Translations under genes and position numbers: made by a program
Notes under the pieces: model-generated
The model's database searches: none
Told to the model about the DNA's origin: nothing
The model's input: only the letters and a program-made list of their open reading frames with translations
Shown here: positions 54,137 through 64,000 of the stretch, in pieces
Layout: every line of letters starts with the position of its first letter
How positions within the stretch are numbered: the stretch's first letter is position 1
Assembly: GCA_963744145.1 (NCBI GenBank)
Contig: CAVUSO010000001.1
Span: forward strand, 5,152,001 to 5,216,000
DNA length: 64,000 bases
Direction of reading: 5' to 3'
Origin: an uncultured cyanobacterium
GTDB taxonomy: Bacteria > Cyanobacteriota > Cyanobacteriia > Cyanobacteriales > CAWUOF01

Positions 54137-57100
54137 ATGAGCCAGTTTACCTTCCTCCAAACCGAATTCTCCGAAATTTACGAATCGGCTAACAAAGCAG
54201 TTAGTGCTGCATATCCCGATCCCCGCGCTGCTTGCTTTTATGCCCGTCGAGCCTTGGAATTAACTGTAAACTGGTTATATAAACACGATAATTCCCTAGA
54301 ACTGCCTTACCAAGACAATCTCAGCGCCCTAATTCATGAGCCCACTTTTAAAAACTTGGTAGGTGAAGCAGTATTTAATAAAGCAAGAGTCATTACTAAA
54401 CTGGGTAATCAGGCAGTCCACAGTTCCAGAGTGATCTCTGTTAATGATTCTATTAGTGCAGTCAGGGAGTTGTTTCACTTTACTTATTGGTTAGTACATA
54501 CCTACGGACGCAACACTAAACCACCATCAGGGCTAACCTTTAACCCCGACTTATTGCCCAAAACTACACCCGTACCTAAACAAACTATTGAACAACTCCA
54601 GAAACTAGAAACTCAACTGCGCGATCGCGATGAAAAACTCTCTACACTTCTAGCCGATAAAAATGCGATCGATGAGGAATTAAAGCAACTACGGACAGAA
54701 TTAGCAGCAGTTAAGAAAGCCAACGTCACCCAGCTCGATCGCCATGACTATTCTGAAGCACAAACCCGCGATCTATTTATAGACTTGTTATTAAAAGAAG
54801 CAGGATGGGCACTAGATCAACCGCGCGATCGCGAGTTTAAAGTTACAGGAATGCCCAACAAATCGGGTAAAGGTGTAATTGATTATGTTCTCTGGGGAAA
54901 TGATGGTAAACCCTTAGCAGTGATTGAAGCAAAACACGCTAAACAAGACCCAAGAGTAGGACAGCAGCAAGCAAAACTTTATGCTAATTGTCTTGAAACC
55001 CAATTTAGTCAGCGTCCCATTATTTTCTATACCAATGGTTATGAGCATTGGCTCTGGGATGACACCAATTATCCACCCCGACAAATACAAGGCTTTTACA
55101 AAAAAGCTGAATTAGAATTACTTGTACAGCGTCGTACTACTCGTAAATCCCTAGCAACAGCTACTATTAACTCACAAATTGCCGAACGTTATTATCAAAC
55201 TCGTGGTATTCGTCGCATTACTGAAGCTTTCGAGCAAGATAAAGACCGCAAAGCTCTGATTGTTATGGCTACTGGAGCAGGTAAAACTAGAACAGCGATC
55301 GCCTTAGTTGATCTGCTCATGCGTTGTAATTGGGTAAAACGGGTATTATTTTTAGCCGATCGCGTAGCCTTAGTAAATCAAGCCATTAATGTATTTAAGA
55401 AACATCTCCCTGATGCTGCTCCAGTTAACTTAGTCACCGAAAAAAATACTGAAGGACGAGTATTTGCATCTACTTATCCCACCATGATGGGGTTAATTGA
55501 TGATACCCGCGATGGTCAGCGTCGTTTTGGAGTTGGACATTTTGACCTAATTATTATCGATGAAGCTCATCGTTCAGTTTTCCAGAAATATCGTGCTATT
55601 TTTAACTATTTTGATGCTCTCTTACTCGGATTAACCGCTACACCCAAGGATGAAATAGATCGCAATACTTACGGATTGTTTGATTTAGAAAATGGAGTTC
55701 CGACCGATGCTTACCAGCTTGAAGATGCTGTAAAAGATGGCTTTTTAGTACCTCCTCAAGCTATATCTGTACCGCTAAAATTTCAACGGGAAGGAATTAG
55801 CTATAACGATCTTTCTGAAGCTGAGAAATTAGAGTGGGATACTCTAGAATGGAATGAAGAAGATCAGATACCCGATCGGGTGAAAGCTGAAGCTGTTAAT
55901 CATTGGCTATTCAATCAAGATACGGTAGACAAAGTATTAGAGCATCTGATGACTAGGGGATTAAAAGTTGCGGGTGGCGATCGCCTCGGTAAAACTATTA
56001 TCTTTGCTAAAAACCAAGATCATGCTGATTTTATTGCGGAACGATTCAATGCTAATTATCCGCATTTGAAGGGTGAATTTGCTCGGGTGATAACTTTTAG
56101 AACTACCTATTCTCAAAGTTTGATTGATAATTTTTCTAGTCAGGATAAAAATCCCCATATTGCGATCTCGGTGGATATGCTGGATACGGGGATTGATGTG
56201 CCAGAGGTAGTTAATTTAGTGCTGTTTAAACTTGTCCGCTCTAAGACTAAGTTTTGGCAGATGATGGGAAGAGGTACTAGATTATGTCCTGATCTCTTTG
56301 GATTAGGGCAAGATAAGCAATTTTTCTATCTGTTTGACTATTGCCAAAATCTGGAGTTTTTTCAGCATAATCTGAATCCTATTGATGCTCCATTAAGTAA
56401 GTCATTGGCTAAACAGTTATTTACTAAACGATTAGAATTAATTACATCGCTAGATAATACCAGCCTTCGACTACGCTCAGGCTACGTGGATAAAGTTAAT
56501 CGGTATGTGAGCGAAACCAAGGGCAAATATGATGCACCAAAGATTGATCAAGTGAATCGATGCCTGAGCGAAGTCGAAGGCACATCTAAAGAACCAAAGA
56601 CTGATGAAGAATTGCGTGATGAAGTAGCTAATTTACTTTGTAAAGAAGTTGCTGCTATGAATACCGAAAACTTCCTAGTGCGCCCAAAACGGAGATTGAT
56701 AGAAAAATACACTAATCCCGAAACCTGGCGATCGCTATCAAATGAAGATTTTACTGAACTGAGTCAAGAAGTAGCGGGTTTACCTTCCCAATTGGAAGTA
56801 GAAGCAGAAGAAATCAAGAGATTTGATGTACTGATGCTAAAGTTACAATTAGCAAATATACAGGCTAATTCTGCCTTTAAACGTTGGCAAGAACAAGTGA
56901 AATCAATAGCGGAGTTACTAGAAGAAAAATCTGCTATTCCATTAGTAAAAGAACAGTTATCTCTAATTCAGGATCTCCAAACTGATGAGTGGTGGCAAGA
57001 TGTCACATTACCCATGTTAGAAGTAGTACGCCAACGCCTAAGAGAATTAGTAAAATTTATTGAGAAACAAAAACGCCAACCTATTTATACTGACTTTGAA

Positions 57101-57628
57101 GATGTAATAGGAGATGAGGAAATAGTTGATCTACCTGGAGTTATAGGATCAGATAACTTTGAAAAATTCCGGATTAAAGCTCGTGCCTTTTTGCGATCGC
57201 ATCAGGATCATGTAGTTATTTTCAAACTAAGAACTAACAAACAACTCACTCCCTCTGATCTAGCTGAACTAGAAAAAATACTACTCGAGAACCACCTAGG
57301 TATTGAAGAGGATATAATCCGTGCTAAAGAAGAATCACAAGGATTAGGTTTATTCGTCCGCTCTTTAGTAGGATTAGATCGAGAAGTCGCCAAACAAGAA
57401 CTAGATAAGTTCATATCTGGGAAAAATCTTAACTCTAATCAAATTGAGTTTGTCAACATGATTGTAGACTACCTCACTGCACATGGTATAATGAACGGGG
57501 CAATCCTCTATGAATCTCCCTTTACCGACATTACATCATCCGGACCAGATGGATTATTTACCTCGACTCAAGTAGATGAATTGTTTTCGATACTTGAAGA
57601 AGTTTATAAAAGAGCCGCTGCATCATAA
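54137..57628 (+). CDS. hsdR: Type I restriction endonuclease subunit R (DUF4145 N-terminus, EcoAI/EcoEI-like)
   Basis: IDYVL...IEAK nuclease motif, ATGAGKT, DEAHRS, TATP, MLDTGID, QMMGRGTR. Confidence 0.95.
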   Translation: MSQFTFLQTEFSEIYESANKAVSAAYPDPRAACFYARRALELTVNWLYKHDNSLELPYQDNLSALIHEPTFKNLVGEAVFNKARVITKLGNQAVHSSRVISVNDSISAVRELFHFTYWLVHTYGRNTKPPSGLTFNPDLLPKTTPVPKQTIEQLQKLETQLRDRDEKLSTLLADKNAIDEELKQLRTELAAVKKANVTQLDRHDYSEAQTRDLFIDLLLKEAGWALDQPRDREFKVTGMPNKSGKGVIDYVLWGNDGKPLAVIEAKHAKQDPRVGQQQAKLYANCLETQFSQRPIIFYTNGYEHWLWDDTNYPPRQIQGFYKKAELELLVQRRTTRKSLATATINSQIAERYYQTRGIRRITEAFEQDKDRKALIVMATGAGKTRTAIALVDLLMRCNWVKRVLFLADRVALVNQAINVFKKHLPDAAPVNLVTEKNTEGRVFASTYPTMMGLIDDTRDGQRRFGVGHFDLIIIDEAHRSVFQKYRAIFNYFDALLLGLTATPKDEIDRNTYGLFDLENGVPTDAYQLEDAVKDGFLVPPQAISVPLKFQREGISYNDLSEAEKLEWDTLEWNEEDQIPDRVKAEAVNHWLFNQDTVDKVLEHLMTRGLKVAGGDRLGKTIIFAKNQDHADFIAERFNANYPHLKGEFARVITFRTTYSQSLIDNFSSQDKNPHIAISVDMLDTGIDVPEVVNLVLFKLVRSKTKFWQMMGRGTRLCPDLFGLGQDKQFFYLFDYCQNLEFFQHNLNPIDAPLSKSLAKQLFTKRLELITSLDNTSLRLRSGYVDKVNRYVSETKGKYDAPKIDQVNRCLSEVEGTSKEPKTDEELRDEVANLLCKEVAAMNTENFLVRPKRRLIEKYTNPETWRSLSNEDFTELSQEVAGLPSQLEVEAEEIKRFDVLMLKLQLANIQANSAFKRWQEQVKSIAELLEEKSAIPLVKEQLSLIQDLQTDEWWQDVTLPMLEVVRQRLRELVKFIEKQKRQPIYTDFEDVIGDEEIVDLPGVIGSDNFEKFRIKARAFLRSHQDHVVIFKLRTNKQLTPSDLAELEKILLENHLGIEEDIIRAKEESQGLGLFVRSLVGLDREVAKQELDKFISGKNLNSNQIEFVNMIVDYLTAHGIMNGAILYESPFTDITSSGPDGLFTSTQVDELFSILEEVYKRAAAS

Positions 57629-57808: not shown

Positions 57809-60544
57809 ATGACCGTAACCAAACCAACCCTTGCTAGTCAATACGACCCATTTACCACTGAAGCCAAGTGGCAAAAGTTTTGGGAAGAAAACCAGACTTT
57901 TAAAGCTAATCCAGAAAGCGGTGGTGAGCCTTACTGTATCGTCATTCCCCCCCCGAACGTCACCGGTAGCTTACACATGGGACACGCTTTGGAAATGTCC
58001 TTAATTGACGCGACGATCCGCTATCGGCGGATGCGGGGGTATAATACACTCTGCCTACCCGGAACTGACCATGCTAGTATAGCTGTCCAAACCCTGCTGG
58101 AAAAAGAATTAAAAAAACAGGGTAAAACTCGCTATGATATCGGACGAGAAAAATTTTTAGAACTGGCTTGGGACTGGAAAGCTGAATCGGGAAACACAAT
58201 TGTGAATCAGCTGCGACGTTTAGGGGTTTCCGTAGATTGGTCGCGAGAACGCTTCACTATGGATGAAGGATTATCGAAAGCAGTCTTAGAATCCTTTGTC
58301 CGTCTCTATGAAGAAGGGCTGATTTATCGTGGTGAATATTTGGTAAATTGGTGCCCAGCTTCCCAATCGGCAGTTTCAGATGTAGAAGTAGATAACCAAG
58401 AAGTTAATGGACATCTATGGCATTTACGCTATCCTCTTATTGATGGTTCAGGTCATTTAGAAGTAGCGACCACCCGACCAGAAACTATGTTAGGCGATAC
58501 AGCGATCGCTGTGCATCCAAATGACGATCGCTATCAACACTTAATTGGCAAAAAAGCCTTGTTGCCGATTATGAATCGGGAGATCATCATTATTGGTGAT
58601 GAATTAGTTGATCCCAAATTTGGCACTGGCTGTGTAAAAGTGACTCCCGCCCATGACCCGAATGATTTTGATATGGGTGTACGTCACCATTTGCCATTGA
58701 TCAATATTATGAATAAGGATGGCACTTTAAATGAAAATGCCGGGCCATTTATCGGTCAAGATCGATTTGTAGCACGTAAAAATATTGTTAAACTTCTGGA
58801 ACAAGAAGGTGTGCTAGTGAAGGTAGAAGAATATAAACATACGGTGCCCTACAGCGATCGCGGCAAAGTTCCGGTCGAACCGTTACTTTCTACCCAATGG
58901 TTTGTTAAGATCCGTCCCCTAGCCGATCAAGCCTTGCAATTTTTAGACGAACAAAATTCCCCTGTCTTTGTGCCAGAACGCTGGTCAAAAACTTATCGTG
59001 ACTGGTTAGTTAAACTAAAAGATTGGTGTATTTCTCGTCAACTCTGGTGGGGACATCAAATTCCCGCTTGGTATGTAGTCAGTGAAACTGGGGGTCAAAT
59101 TACAGAGCGCACCCCTTTTGTGGTAGCTCGCACGACCACCGAAGCTGAAGCAAAAGCTAAAGCTCAATTTGGCGAAAAGATCAAGCTCGAACAAGATCCA
59201 GATGTACTTGATACTTGGTTTTCTTCGGGCTTATGGCCATTTTCGACCTTGGGATGGCCCGAACAAACCTTAGAGCTAAAAACCTACTACCCTACTAATA
59301 CAATGGTAACAGGGTTTGACATCATCTTTTTCTGGGTAGCACGTATGACCATGATGGCTGGGCATTTTACCAAACAAATACCCTTCCAAGATGTTTATAT
59401 TCATGGATTAGTTTTGGATGAAAACGGTCAAAAAATGTCCAAAACTAAGGGGAATGGGATTGATCCCTTGGTGCTAATCGATAAGTATGGTACTGATGCG
59501 TTACGTTATACTCTAGTCAAGGAAGTAGCTGGGGCGGGTCAAGATATTCGCTTAGAATATAATCGGGAAAAGCATGAATCATTATCAGTAGAAGCAGCAA
59601 GGAATTTTACTAATAAACTCTGGAATGCGGCTCGGTTTGTGATGATGAACCTAGATGGACAAACACCGCAACAGTTAGGACAAGCGGAGCTAACCACATC
59701 TGAATTATGCGATCGCTGGATTCTGTCGCGCTATGAGCAAGTAGTACAGCAAACCTGTAAATATATTGATAATTACGGTTTAGGAGAAGCAGCGAAAGGA
59801 TTGTATGAGTTTATTTGGGGTGATTTCTGCGATTGGTACATTGAGTTGGTAAAACCACGGCTCCAATTAGAAATCTCTAGTCCATCTAGACGCTCAGTCC
59901 AGCAAATTTTAGCTGTGATTCTGGAGGGGATATTAAAACTACTCCATCCCTTCATGCCCCATATTACCGAAGAAATCTGGCAAACTCTAACCTTAGCACC
60001 TGTCGGTGCTACACTATCTCTCCAATCCTATCCCCAGGCAGAAATATCCCTCATTGATTCTGATTTAGAAGCAAAATTTCAATTCTTAATCGATCTAATT
60101 CGCACAATTCGGAATTTACGAGTGGAAGCAGAGGTAAAACCTGGGGCAAAGATCAGGCTAGTTTTGCAAACGGAAAGTGAATCAGAGCAAGAGATTATTA
60201 CCTCTGGACGGGGATACATTGAAAATCTAGTGAAAGTAGAACAATTAACGATTACTCGAATTTTAGAACCAGAAATAGAGCCGGCGATCGCTGGAGTTGT
60301 AGGTACAGTCCAAGTGTTAATTCCCCTAGCAGGAGTGGTAGATATTAGCGCAAGACGTACCAAATTAGAAAAAAGCTTGAGTAAGGTAGAAGCAGAAGCT
60401 AATACCCTTTCGAGTCGTCTGGGCAATTCCAAATTTGTGAATAATGCTCCAGTCGAGGTGGTGCAAGCAGCACAAGCTGCTCTAGTAGAAGCCCAAAAAC
60501 AGGTGGAAATTTTGCGCGAGCAACTCAGCCGATTGGCTGGTTGA
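57809..60544 (+). CDS. valS: Valine--tRNA ligase
   Basis: [30 protein letters not shown]-terminal coiled coil. Confidence 0.98.
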
Positions 60545-61566: not shown

Positions 61567-61941
61567 ATGATCAGCATTACATCGATAGAAATTGCTCAAT
61601 ATCGTTCTGAATTGTCCAATTATCCCCGCGCTTTACAAGCTTTGGATCTGATTGAAGATTGTGAGGGAGATTTGGAAGATGCAGCGATCGCAATGGCAAT
61701 TCAAGTGGGACAGGAACCGGATACATCTAATAATTGGTTAGAGGGATTAGCAAAAAGATGTCGGGTTGCGATTTGTGAAAAAGATTTGAGGGAAGATTTG
61801 TTAAATGGTAAATTAAGTACAGCGATCGCACATTTACAAACGACAAATCTTTGTCCTCCAATTTTAGCAACCCCTGTAGTTATTTATGCTGTTAAGACGG
61901 GAATCAATGATTTTTGTGAGCCTTTAGAGTTTAAACTGTAA
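61567..61941 (+). CDS. Conserved cyanobacterial hypothetical protein
   Basis: ALDLIEDCEGDLEDAAI motif; clean ORF. Confidence 0.7.
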   Translation: MISITSIEIAQYRSELSNYPRALQALDLIEDCEGDLEDAAIAMAIQVGQEPDTSNNWLEGLAKRCRVAICEKDLREDLLNGKLSTAIAHLQTTNLCPPILATPVVIYAVKTGINDFCEPLEFKL

Positions 61942-61963
61942 AGACTCGCATTGTGTAGTTTTG

Positions 61964-63565
61964 TTACACTTCATCCATTGCTAACATCTGAATCAGACGG
62001 GGTGTTCCTGGATCAAACCCAGCAATATCCCAAGATTTTGGATCTTTTGGATCAACTAAGGAGATATTGTAGGGAGCAAGTGCAATATAAATTGCTTTGG
62101 CATGGGGATTGATTTTATGGCGATATTCTGCTAAAGCTTGACTAGGATGTTTCTTTCCTGCCCAACTTTCACAATCAGTCCAAAAGCAAAATAGATCTGC
62201 TTTAAACTTGGTTTTAATTGCCCAATCGTAAGCGACAGATGCGTCAGTTCCACCGAAATTCTGGTTACTGGCTTTGGCGATCGCTTGACTAAAAGAATCC
62301 TGTGCGGTAATCTTTAAATCACGGAAATCAGTAGCAAAACCACGAATGACATAATTTTTTTCTGCTTTCGCAGTTGCTAAAGCCATGACGGTAGCAATTT
62401 CGCAACAAGTTAAGCCAATGGAACTAACAGTATTAAAGGACATGGAACCGGAAATATCAACAGCGTGTAAGAAAGTTTTCCCGGTTGGAGGAAGTACATC
62501 AAAAGCTAGTTCTAAGGCTTTCTCTAAGATATCAATAATCTGCCGAATTGGTTGCCAAGTTTTTTTACTCCGACCTAATTCTCCTCCTGATTGATAGGTT
62601 TTGATAGCTTTCAAGATGTCAATCGGATGAATCCGTCCTTTCTGTAAATGTTCCCGACTATTGAGTAACTTAGCAATACGCTTCAAATTAGACTGATGAT
62701 GAGTAGTTAAAACCTCTAATTGTGTTAATGATCCAAGATTTCGCAGCATCGCACCAATGGGCATTTCATTAAACAGCAATTGCCATGCTTTTTGATCCAT
62801 TTTACCTACAGGTGCAGCCATTTCATGGGTTAATCTTCCTTTCGCGATCGCTTCATGAGTTTTTTCTGGATGACGTTTTAACCATTCATACCACCAAATT
62901 TGTGCTAAGGGTTCAGCTGGAATTTTAGAGGGTAATTTATCCCATCCGTGCATTACCCACTTAAACAATTGATTATGGGTTTCAGTGATAGGTTTCACAT
63001 GAAATAAGCGCAACGCATCACGATGGGAAAAACCTTGACGTTGTTGGTATTTCAACAATTGATAAGCTAATTCTTGCACATTATCACGGGAAAACCAAGC
63101 TTTACCAGCTTCACGTACAATTTTACCAAAACCACGCATGGCTTTAGTGTAACCTAGCCATTCATAGAAATGACTACCAGTTCGTACTACTTGCAGAAAG
63201 ATTTCTCCAAAAGCTTGTTTAGCTTCTTGGGAATTGTCCATTGATAACAACACTAACGCAAATAAAGGGGCACTATTATTAATTGCGCGTCCATCACTAG
63301 CATAGAGAATTTCGGTAGCAACTTGGTTCGGATTAAGAGCGATCGCTTGTTTGAGGATTTCGACAAATTCGATCGTTAACTCATGTTTACCTGCATAATA
63401 GGTATTTTGAGCTGTACCAATTAACAAACAACGACGTAATACATTCCAAATATCAGCTTTAAACATCCAACCACCAGAACGTCCTGGAACCATTTCTGTT
63501 TCTCGACCAGGAATTGGTTGAGTCTGGGGGGTTTGATTTTTTACAAAAAACTTATAATTCATCAT
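61964..63565 (-). CDS. rsr: Ro60/Rsr ortholog (TROVE + vWA domain)
   Basis: RRCLLIG..TYYA, KYQQRQGFSHRD.LRL.H, A.LRNLG, RIHP, VDISGSM (MIDAS), GGTD, TD.E.W, GFD. Confidence 0.93.
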   Translation of the reverse strand: MMNYKFFVKNQTPQTQPIPGRETEMVPGRSGGWMFKADIWNVLRRCLLIGTAQNTYYAGKHELTIEFVEILKQAIALNPNQVATEILYASDGRAINNSAPLFALVLLSMDNSQEAKQAFGEIFLQVVRTGSHFYEWLGYTKAMRGFGKIVREAGKAWFSRDNVQELAYQLLKYQQRQGFSHRDALRLFHVKPITETHNQLFKWVMHGWDKLPSKIPAEPLAQIWWYEWLKRHPEKTHEAIAKGRLTHEMAAPVGKMDQKAWQLLFNEMPIGAMLRNLGSLTQLEVLTTHHQSNLKRIAKLLNSREHLQKGRIHPIDILKAIKTYQSGGELGRSKKTWQPIRQIIDILEKALELAFDVLPPTGKTFLHAVDISGSMSFNTVSSIGLTCCEIATVMALATAKAEKNYVIRGFATDFRDLKITAQDSFSQAIAKASNQNFGGTDASVAYDWAIKTKFKADLFCFWTDCESWAGKKHPSQALAEYRHKINPHAKAIYIALAPYNISLVDPKDPKSWDIAGFDPGTPRLIQMLAMDEV

Positions 63566-63569
63566 AATT

Positions 63570-63587
63570 TTCAGCCCGTCAGGACAA
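63570..63587 (-). promoter_or_regulatory. Ro60-site-like hairpin 4 nt upstream of the rsr start codon
   Basis: Minus strand TTGTCC-TGAC-GGGCTGAA can pair with a single bulged pyrimidine. Confidence 0.45.
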
Positions 63588-63604
63588 TTAAAAGTGTGGT
63601 AATA

Positions 63605-63731
63605 TGGTGTAGTGGAGCGGGAATTGCACCCGCATCTCGTCGATTAAGGGGGATGTCGTGTTACAGCGATAATCCTCAATCTGCGTCCCTTTCGGGCAAA
63701 AATTGCGCTTTACTATTAAGCTACCCACCAC
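63605..63731 (-). ncRNA. tRNA-shaped Y RNA candidate (YrlA-like, circularly permuted), 127 nt
   Basis: GTGGTGGG/TCCACTAC acceptor stem + A-CCA; D arm GCTT-AATAGTA-AAGC; T arm GCGGG-TGCAATT-CCCGC; about 70-nt insert instead of an anticodon arm; co-oriented 40 nt upstream of Ro60. Confidence 0.8.
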
Positions 63732-64000
63732 ATAAAAGGTACTTTTGACTTGTTACTGGTTTATTGTTTCTGTTGGTCTCCTTTGCTTTGATGAATCCAG
63801 ATTAAGCTGGTCAACTTCCCTGAAGCTAATTGTGCAAAAAAAAGCTAAAATCCATTGATAATTACTGTTTGAGACCTAGGGGAAGATCCTTGACTAGGGG
63901 ATTCCCTCAACTTTCTGATAACTTTTATAGGTCAATACTTTGGACACTTTTACGGTAAATCTAGAAACAACTGGTAGAGAGACTGGAATACTCAAGCTAT

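Follow-up and report, generated by a model that had tools for sequence, protein, structure and literature searches.

A probable tRNA-order Y RNA encoded upstream of Ro60 in an uncultured cyanobacterium

The 64,000-nucleotide stretch of DNA analysed here (the window) carries on its minus strand, at 63605..63731, a 127-nt gene whose product is probably a Y RNA in tRNA order, one that would carry Ro60 and act as a tRNA decoy in translation stress. The comparative basis of this explanation, the best overall, is the tRNA order itself, an open acceptor stem, an elbow under selection, near-exclusive same-strand linkage to Ro60, an alanine-type acceptor, and anticodon loops in sister units. The gene is the sole unit at its locus and belongs to the type A subtype of a larger family; it is defined by its exact sequence, by folding, by the Rfam tRNA model and by covariation. 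It had been proposed from the letters of the DNA, and the 127-nt sequence given in that sequence-only reading is exactly window 63731..63605 of the minus strand.

The RNA gene and its tRNA order

Minimum free energy folding of the RNA recovers every element that had been proposed for it: an 8-bp acceptor stem, a D arm, a CCC-GAAA-GGG hairpin, a GATTGAGG/CCTTAATC stem and a T arm. In this fold an 8-bp inner stem is capped by a small hairpin and the ACCA end is unpaired; the energy of -39.7 kcal/mol (z -2.18, with 4 of 200 shuffles as stable) is modest evidence alone. The Rfam tRNA model scores the RNA at 33.8 bits (cut-off 29), and its alignment has a 66-nt insert in the place of the anticodon arm, where an insert of about 70 nt had been claimed. 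Apart from the tRNA model, no Rfam family matched at the element, intron families included, and ARAGORN called no tRNA in the window RNA.

The 5' strand of the 8-bp acceptor stem (63724..63731, minus strand, as are all features of the RNA) contributes G1, U2, G3 and G4, numbered from the CCA end. The D arm that follows (63707..63721) has 4 bp and a 7-nt loop, with A15, and with A18 in place of G18. Near the other end, the T arm (63617..63633) has 5 bp and a 7-nt loop with G55, which covaries with the loss of G18, and the acceptor 3' strand (63605..63616) holds U70 of a G3·U70 wobble, discriminator A73 and an encoded CCA. The three tRNAs of the window lack an encoded CCA, just as the sequence-only reading had it; in the host genome an encoded CCA is found in 5 of 62 intron-less tRNA calls, none of those 5 in the window. 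A scan for Sigma-70 promoters and terminators gave no convincing minus-strand candidate, and among the sequencing runs listed for window 61900-64000 there was none of RNA. An upstream element at 63796..63820 (minus strand), common to 9 of 74 related loci, is a possible promoter, its pattern having been defined post hoc.

The order of the arms can be judged across the family. D arms were located independently of acceptor pairing, and of the 302 parsed units, 44 in which no D arm was called and another 26 whose acceptor had under 6 pairs are excluded from the subtype counts used below. Within their own unit, 224 of the 258 D-arm-bearing units show 7/7 acceptor pairing. When 165 neighbouring pairs are compared, Watson-Crick acceptor pairs are more numerous within than across units in 155, equal in 6 and fewer in 4. 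The acceptor stem of the window unit is thus open, as had been proposed: the D arm comes first, CCA is encoded, and pairing is within the unit.

Chen et al. (2014, PMC4201824) reported few cyanobacterial YrlAs, some of them with a longer "acceptor stem" that a second model was made to include. The Calothrix, Stanieria and Gloeocapsa sequences in Supplementary text 2 of that paper (PMC4201824) run from a GGNCGA motif through a T arm and a spacer to a D arm; inspected by eye, they consist of the last part of one unit and the first part of its neighbour. Rfam YrlA model matches likewise straddle neighbouring units, at no more than 52 bits (cut-off 69), and tRNA model matches fall within units. 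Both the 2014 listing and these straddling matches would be expected if the functional RNA were a canonical permuted YrlA, running from the GGNCG of one unit to the TTGCC of the next and closed, as in the 2014 model, by a long acceptor loop. That reading is scarcely credible, since the window unit has no neighbour and no D arm downstream, acceptor Watson-Crick pairs average 4.0 across units against 5.9 within them, the spacers to be bridged vary from 9 to 299 nt, and 114 of 232 full units encode a CCA immediately following the within-unit stem. Given the preference for within-unit pairing, it seems that the "long-acceptor YrlA" calls published for cyanobacteria extend over two units. The suspicion that such a variant had already been noted in cyanobacteria was right as to the loci, which were listed in 2014, but not as to the form, since they were read as permuted YrlA across units and not in tRNA order.

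Covariation upstream of Ro60 genes agrees with the proposed pairing. In an alignment of 23 window-subtype units, pairing holds in 95.6% of cells, and at 9 of 36 pairs both partners vary; none of 500 shuffles matched the covariation score, and slid controls were 42-50% paired. Among 43 diverse type B units (the larger subtype, described below), 25 of 35 pairs are compensatory, all 8 acceptor pairs included. The elbow covaries as well: at positions 18 and 55, 146 of 200 units combine a D-loop GG with U55, 51 have no GG together with G55, and 3 are exceptions. The Levitt pair 15:48 is G15:C48 in 115 and A15:U48 in 99 of 221 distinct units, and the window unit has the A18/G55 and A15:U48 states. 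The units are paralogues and kin, so that these family counts overstate their independence. The better within-unit pairing (155 of 165), together with the elbow covariation, argues that the tRNA order is real; selection for an L-shaped fold of the units is well supported by comparison of their sequences, and the window gene almost certainly encodes a structured RNA selected in tRNA order.

The internal Ro60 site and the linkage to Ro60

The insert contains, at 63684..63699, a bulged hairpin in which a YrlA 3'-end-like TTGCCC and a YrlA 5'-start-like GGGACG are joined through a GAAA loop, and which is the predicted Ro60-binding site. In the Rfam YrlA consensus these two strands correspond to the terminal segments, TTGCCC to the 3' end and GGGACG to the 5' start. 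In the window-subtype alignment this helix (helix 4) is 94.8% paired, with 2 of 5 pairs compensatory. After GGGACG come a helix strand and then YUAY, the same succession as in YrlA. The strand is the 5' side of a lower helix, GATTGAGG (63674..63681), identified by fold and covariation; the YUAY motif, TTAT (63669..63672), corresponds to the start of the YrlA "V" element and leads into a 3-bp hairpin (63656..63669) with an 8-nt anticodon-like loop, CTGTAACA, which is 7 nt long in most orthologues. The 3' strand of the lower helix, CCTTAATC, follows at 63642..63649; type B sisters have the corresponding strand on the 5' side of the Ro hairpin.

In the YrlA described by Chen et al. (2014, PMC4201824), a GNCGAAN0-1G motif lies near the 5' end and YUAY opens the V element. 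The sequence-only reading had claimed the Ro-binding ends of a Y RNA for this element. The ends are present, but the Ro motif, GACGCAG at 63681..63687, differs at one base from the published GNCGAAN0-1G. Strict GNCGAA occurs in just 60 of 232 units, so the motif of the family is looser than the published one. From the sequence and its comparison, it is probable that Ro60 binds the internal bulged hairpin of the window RNA.

The family divides mainly into two arrangements. In type B (160 of 232 units) the lower-helix partner is 5' of the Ro hairpin, and the module, 48-56 nt between tRNA positions 28 and 29, is a clean circular permutation of YrlA. In type A (62 of 232, the window unit among them) the partner is 3' of the motif, a second rearrangement, so that the window subtype is not a simple YrlA permutation. 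Of the idea that the YrlA ends were joined by a tetraloop, the joining of both motifs by a short loop survives, and simple permutation does not for this subtype. The Rfam YrlA model (RF02553), which had been put forward as a means of recognising the element, gave no match to its native form. With a YrlA-like profile HMM made from 14 fetched sequences, the window unit rises from 4.5 bits in native order to 15.8 bits when permuted, and permuted real tRNAs reach as much as 32.5; the type B medians rise from 16.5 to 34.1 bits, with many type A units unscored. The profile does not discriminate the window unit from tRNAs, since T and D arms dominate its score, and because the unit's permuted score falls below that of permuted real tRNAs, its homology to YrlA is argued from motif order and from type B.

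The Ro60/Rsr gene itself (61964..63565, minus strand) encodes 533 amino acids with TROVE and vWA_Ro60 domains and starts 40 nt downstream of the RNA on the same strand, so that the reported neighbour is indeed Ro60. The protein matches Xenopus Ro60 with an E value of 2.9e-74, like human and Deinococcus Ro60 it aligns with it along the full extent of the window protein, and the closest relatives of this protein are cyanobacterial, with 70-80% identity. A helix region, KYQQRQGFSHRDALRLFHVKP, can be aligned with Xenopus Ro60 and is presumably one with a role in Y RNA binding.

The conservation of the element beside other Ro60 genes, anticipated in the sequence-only reading, is extensive: the window sequence matches 76 of 80 related Ro60 loci, and 3 of the 4 unmatched loci include less than 200 nt of upstream DNA. 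A profile from 190 distinct units gave 323 matches in 79 of 82 sequences, 0 of the 323 on the opposite strand; as it was built from those very loci, its informative part is the strand and position of the matches. Between 1 and 8 units precede Ro60 at each locus, and at 49 loci another follows it. The 7.7-Mb host genome has 3 profile matches, every one beside either of its two TROVE genes. Of 151 sampled genomes of the phylum, 14 have a cyanobacterial-type full-length Ro60, and all 14 have a nearby long model match among the matches listed, at about 1.5 kb or less from Ro60 in 13 genomes and at 5.5 kb in 1. The model used for this survey, R2, gives ordinary tRNAs up to about 56 bits, for which reason only long hits among the matches listed were counted. 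A 146-nt match in a genome without a Ro60 match (G091) was rejected as a tRNA with a partial upstream duplication, the module being absent.

Relatives are also present in other bacteria and on viral contigs. When viral and metagenome contigs were scanned with a pattern, 180 matches, some of them overlapping, turned up at 127 loci: 114 are in tRNA order, 40 are without a T arm and 26 are of other kinds. Among the 114 in tRNA order, 80 have Ro60 on the fetched DNA and 34 do not, many of the latter being short; tRNA order was found at 4 of 5 viral loci.

Several further observations concern the loci themselves. Some tRNA-order units accompany Ro60 genes only distantly related to that of the window, with about 32-38% identity (L101, L102 (G082, G070), L110-L113, L117 and L128); there they form part of long tRNA arrays, at times near canonical YrlA matches, and in one case lie on a 427-kb viral contig. 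The host's second Ro60 paralogue (G000:C1:7521786-7522081, L081; 68% identical) is accompanied by a type B and a type A unit; it has no leader hairpin and starts directly after the last unit. A CCA-adding-type gene near this second locus was not counted as evidence. The unit found downstream of Ro60 at 49 of the loci L001-L080 (e.g., L036 4650-4764) has an open acceptor, a Ro module, a T arm and a T-rich tail without a D arm, and is possibly a counterpart of YrlB. L011 1483-2734 holds a threefold tandem repeat of a block in which a type A unit is followed by a type B unit. ARAGORN miscalls parts of units as tRNA-Tyr, tRNA-Asn and intron-containing tRNA-Ile (L112 2512-2582, L102 1942-2014 and G000:C1:7521785-7521927), so that tRNA annotations close to Ro60 genes may in some cases stand for such RNAs. 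Picosynechococcus PCC 7002 has three units before Ro60 on plasmid pAQ7, making it a tractable host for the study of tRNA-order Y RNA units.

Acceptor marks, anticodon-type loops and regulation

Numbered from the CCA, the window acceptor reads G1-C72, U2-A71, G3·U70, G4-C69 and A73. Among distinct 8-bp units, an encoded ACCA accompanies G3·U70 in 53 of 55 and G3-C70 in 7 of 74; after clustering at 50% shared words, G3·U70 is found with ACCA in 23 and without it in 2, and G3-C70 with ACCA in 6 and without it in 31. U70 and ACCA lie within 7 nt of each other and thus may be inherited as a block. G3·U70 and A73 are the keys to AlaRS recognition and are conserved in tmRNA (PMC3968760); by its sequence, the window acceptor carries an alanine-type signature. 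Full likeness to tRNA-Ala is contradicted by U2-A71, present in 68 of 69 ACCA units, where the host tRNA-Ala genes and tmRNA have G2-C71, and by the acceptor length of 8 bp in the window RNA versus 7 bp in the host's housekeeping tRNA-Ala genes and tmRNA. Charging of the window RNA with alanine by AlaRS, as occurs with tmRNA, is suggested tentatively by these marks and is on balance doubtful. A different arrangement, G-1:C73 directly before the CCA as in tRNA-His, occurs in 8 distinct units at L001-L080 (e.g., L024 854-983), so that other units may mimic other identities.

The loop that follows YUAY resembles an anticodon loop most closely in type B, where 129 of 160 units have a 3-bp stem and a 7-nt loop. 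U33 is present in 125 and a purine at position 37 in 124 of these 129, which together display 18 triplets. The loops also obey the context rules of anticodons, with G36 followed by G37 in 33 of 34 cases and U36 by A37A38 in 34 of 35, and many are identical to real tRNA loops of the host genome. A single kind of type B acceptor can bear Gly, Asn, Lys, Met, Thr, Arg or Pro triplets; because such unrelated triplets share an acceptor, the type B loops are mimics and not decoders. The window loop, 8 nt long and of GTA type, is at the tip of the long inner stem, unlike an anticodon arm. The long insert and the 13-bp acceptor-T arm of the RNA make ordinary decoding unlikely.

Canonical permuted YrlAs have been described as lacking an anticodon loop (Wang et al. 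2018, 10.1101/312249). Their V arm often consists of a 3-bp stem capped by an anticodon-type loop of 7 nt (triplets GTT, CTT, CCG, GAT or CAG), as seen at L096 2980-3112, L097 3033-3162 and 3294-3422, L087 3487-3620 and L089 1535-1830.

A direct repeat over the -10 box marks the cyanobacterial translation-stress regulon (PMC8421152) and is bound by TrcR (PMC10272220). Within 200 nt before the first unit, a TrcR-type repeat is found exactly in 29 of 74 arrays, and with one mismatch allowed in 48 of 74, against 0.5% and 2.5% of control windows (both strands). The repeat is absent at the window locus; in the host genome it is present at rtcB and at one tRNA array. The host rtcB (G000:C1:2070820-2072592), with the repeat upstream, consists of two matching pieces about 660 nt apart in one open frame, and its interruption is possibly an intein.

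A lone second Ro-site hairpin lies just before the Ro60 start codon (63570..63587, minus strand) and is a candidate autoregulatory operator. Hairpins of this kind occur within 45 nt of the Ro60 start at 68 of 79 loci versus 22 of 4552 control ORFs, and at most loci they overlap a GGAG or GGGAG ribosome-binding site; the fold alone is weak (z -0.49). Whether RNA-free Ro60 would repress its own translation through this start-codon hairpin is an evenly balanced question on such comparisons.

Other features of the surroundings are recorded here for completeness. A 129-nt segment is duplicated with 93% identity at window 63803-63931 and at G000:C1:5216789-5216917, upstream of the RNA and of a NACHT gene, respectively. 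Just past the window end, G000:C1:5216290-5216510 is a frameshifted, truncated gene copy with a paralogue at C1:3880617-3880832; it is interrupted by a short repeat abundant in the host genome, and it gave no Pfam match. The copy may resemble a ribbon-helix-helix regulator. Within the window, a type I restriction R-subunit-like gene (54137-57628) adjoins an ORF (57809-60544) that is valyl-tRNA synthetase-like by its sequence.

Proposed function, alternatives and relation to known systems

The RNA and Ro60 would likely be made as one transcript, from which the unit is likely to be excised in the manner of a pre-tRNA; there is a strong presumption that it is expressed and matured by RNase P and 3' trimming. 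Ro60 is predicted to grip the internal bulged hairpin in the anticodon-arm position, and the particle would present a tRNA elbow, a CCA end and an array-wide panel of anticodon loops to tRNA-acting enzymes in translation stress. As to its main role, the RNA could perhaps be a bait for anticodon nucleases or other tRNA-attacking enzymes, recruiting Ro60 and partners such as PNPase or RtcB, a proposal held with somewhat less than even confidence; against it, Salmonella YrlA was uncut by the one anticodon nuclease studied. The fullest version, in which the G3·U70/ACCA subgroup would be alanylated while carrying Ro60, the arrays would serve as toxin bait, and Ro60 would tune itself through its own site over the ribosome-binding site, is unlikely as a whole, although not negligible. 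If true, tmRNA would no longer be the only natural class of non-decoding RNA to be alanylated, but one of two.

Three alternatives to the decoy remain to be weighed along with the cross-unit YrlA considered above. The unit might be mainly an RNase P site and Ro60 sensor, a cis-acting leader that controls Ro60 expression and frees an RNA with little role of its own. The RNA does end 40 nt from the Ro60 start codon on the same strand, and a Ro-site hairpin precedes that start at 68 of 79 loci; but a leader would not need up to 8 diverged units per array, an extra unit downstream of Ro60 at 49 loci, anticodon-loop rules or alanine marks, and some units sit inside tRNA arrays as far as 16 kb from Ro60. 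It is accordingly rated improbable as the main explanation. A similarly low rating goes to decay, by which the family would be real and the window copy a relic left after loss of the remaining array. Here there is a single unit versus two in the closest relatives, one base pair is lost at the base of the anticodon stem, the loop has 8 nt, the motif has its mismatch and no TrcR-type repeat is found; moreover, the 129-nt upstream segment is duplicated 1 kb off and a frameshifted gene fragment lies just past the window. All the same, no base pair is missing from the acceptor (8), the D stem (4) or the T stem (5), with U-A in place of C-G at acceptor pair 5. Orthologues share the motif variant, the lost pair and the A18/G55 state; Ro60 is full-length, and the upstream element of the clade is retained.

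The insert might also be an unusual intron of a spare tRNA: once it was spliced out and the ends were ligated, with RtcB as one candidate ligase, a tRNA able to decode under stress would result. For type B the arithmetic of such an excision is striking, since removal in silico of the 48-56-nt insert yields an ARAGORN tRNA in 127 of 129 cases as against 1 of 232 native units, and related units do occur within tRNA arrays. For the window unit it fails: 0 of 732 single deletions give a canonical anticodon arm of 5 bp and 7 nt, 21 having given some ARAGORN call, so that the window RNA does not behave as an intron-containing tRNA, in agreement with the sequence-only reading. In type B the acceptor identity and the anticodon would be mismatched, the same acceptor bearing varied triplets; no intron family matched in Rfam, and no splicing endonuclease has been reported from bacteria (Wang et al. 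2018, 10.1101/312249). An intron is thus very improbable, and the Ro60-carrying decoy in tRNA order stays the preferred explanation.

A literature search, with key reviews and the b7a-tRNA paper outside its coverage, found no description of a tRNA-order Y RNA. New here are the link between G3·U70 and ACCA, the anticodon loops of sister units, the TrcR-type repeats at arrays and the Ro-site hairpin before the Ro60 start. The arrays, the alanine-type acceptor, the anticodon-type loops and the leader hairpin had escaped the sequence-only reading. Both primary YrlA papers leave the purpose of the tRNA-like half open and treat a closed acceptor and a missing anticodon loop as typical, with charging unlikely to be general. 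A free CCA, alanine marks and real anticodon loops invert those premises, and G3·U70, U33 and the bulged hairpin offer single-base tests. The cyanobacterial YrlA predictions are re-read, and Ro60 is tied to the TrcR translation-stress regulon in many cyanobacteria. The family also bears on the origins of Y RNAs, since a type B unit amounts to an entire tRNA into which, between positions 28 and 29, a Ro module has been inserted.

The closest known relative is YrlA (RF02553; PMC4201824; 10.1101/312249). The two share a Ro60 neighbour within 4 kb on the same strand, several copies per locus, D and T arms with tRNA tertiary pairs, and the succession of a GNCG-type motif, a helix strand and YUAY, with a TTG(T/C)C-type complementary strand. 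They differ in that YrlA has its T arm 5' of its D arm and a loop-closed acceptor, whereas here the D arm comes first and the acceptor is open, often with an encoded CCA. In YrlA, and in Y RNAs generally, the Ro site is formed by the paired RNA ends, and here it is an internal hairpin closed by GAAA; single units, unlike YrlA, are unmatched by the Rfam model, and the window subtype has its lower-helix partner 3'. The window RNA is therefore set apart from canonical YrlA by arm order and open acceptor, by the internal place of its motif, terminal in YrlA, and by its model score. The "long acceptor stem" YrlAs of Chen et al. 2014 (Supplementary text 2, Table S1) come from the same kind of locus and have the same motifs, but were read across two units. 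The YrlA of M. smegmatis is cut by RNase P, receives CCA and has an open acceptor while bound to Ro60 (Chen et al. 2014, PMC4201824); there the gene is permuted and the product comes in two pieces, whereas here a single continuous strand is encoded in tRNA order.

Two groups of unusual tRNAs also invite comparison. The b7a-tRNA of Burroughs and Aravind (2016), as related by Wang et al. (2018, 10.1101/312249), is like an authentic tRNA and lies beside Band-7 and RtcB genes, at times with Rsr. Overlap with the tRNA-order Y RNA family is possible and is the main risk to novelty. The allo-tRNAs and irregular tRNA polycistrons (PMC5389517) likewise have long acceptors, diverse anticodons and arrays, with some G3·U70 members tested for AlaRS charging; their branches are of 12 bp (8/4 or 9/3) versus 13 bp in the window RNA, and the text available from that source mentions neither a Ro60 link nor a Ro module. 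With the tRNA-like domain of tmRNA and with tRNA-Ala, the window RNA has in common G1-C72, G3·U70, G4-C69, A73 and CCA, and with the former the want of a decoding anticodon arm; it differs from them in U2-A71, an 8-bp acceptor and a full D stem, and in having neither a tag frame nor pseudoknots.
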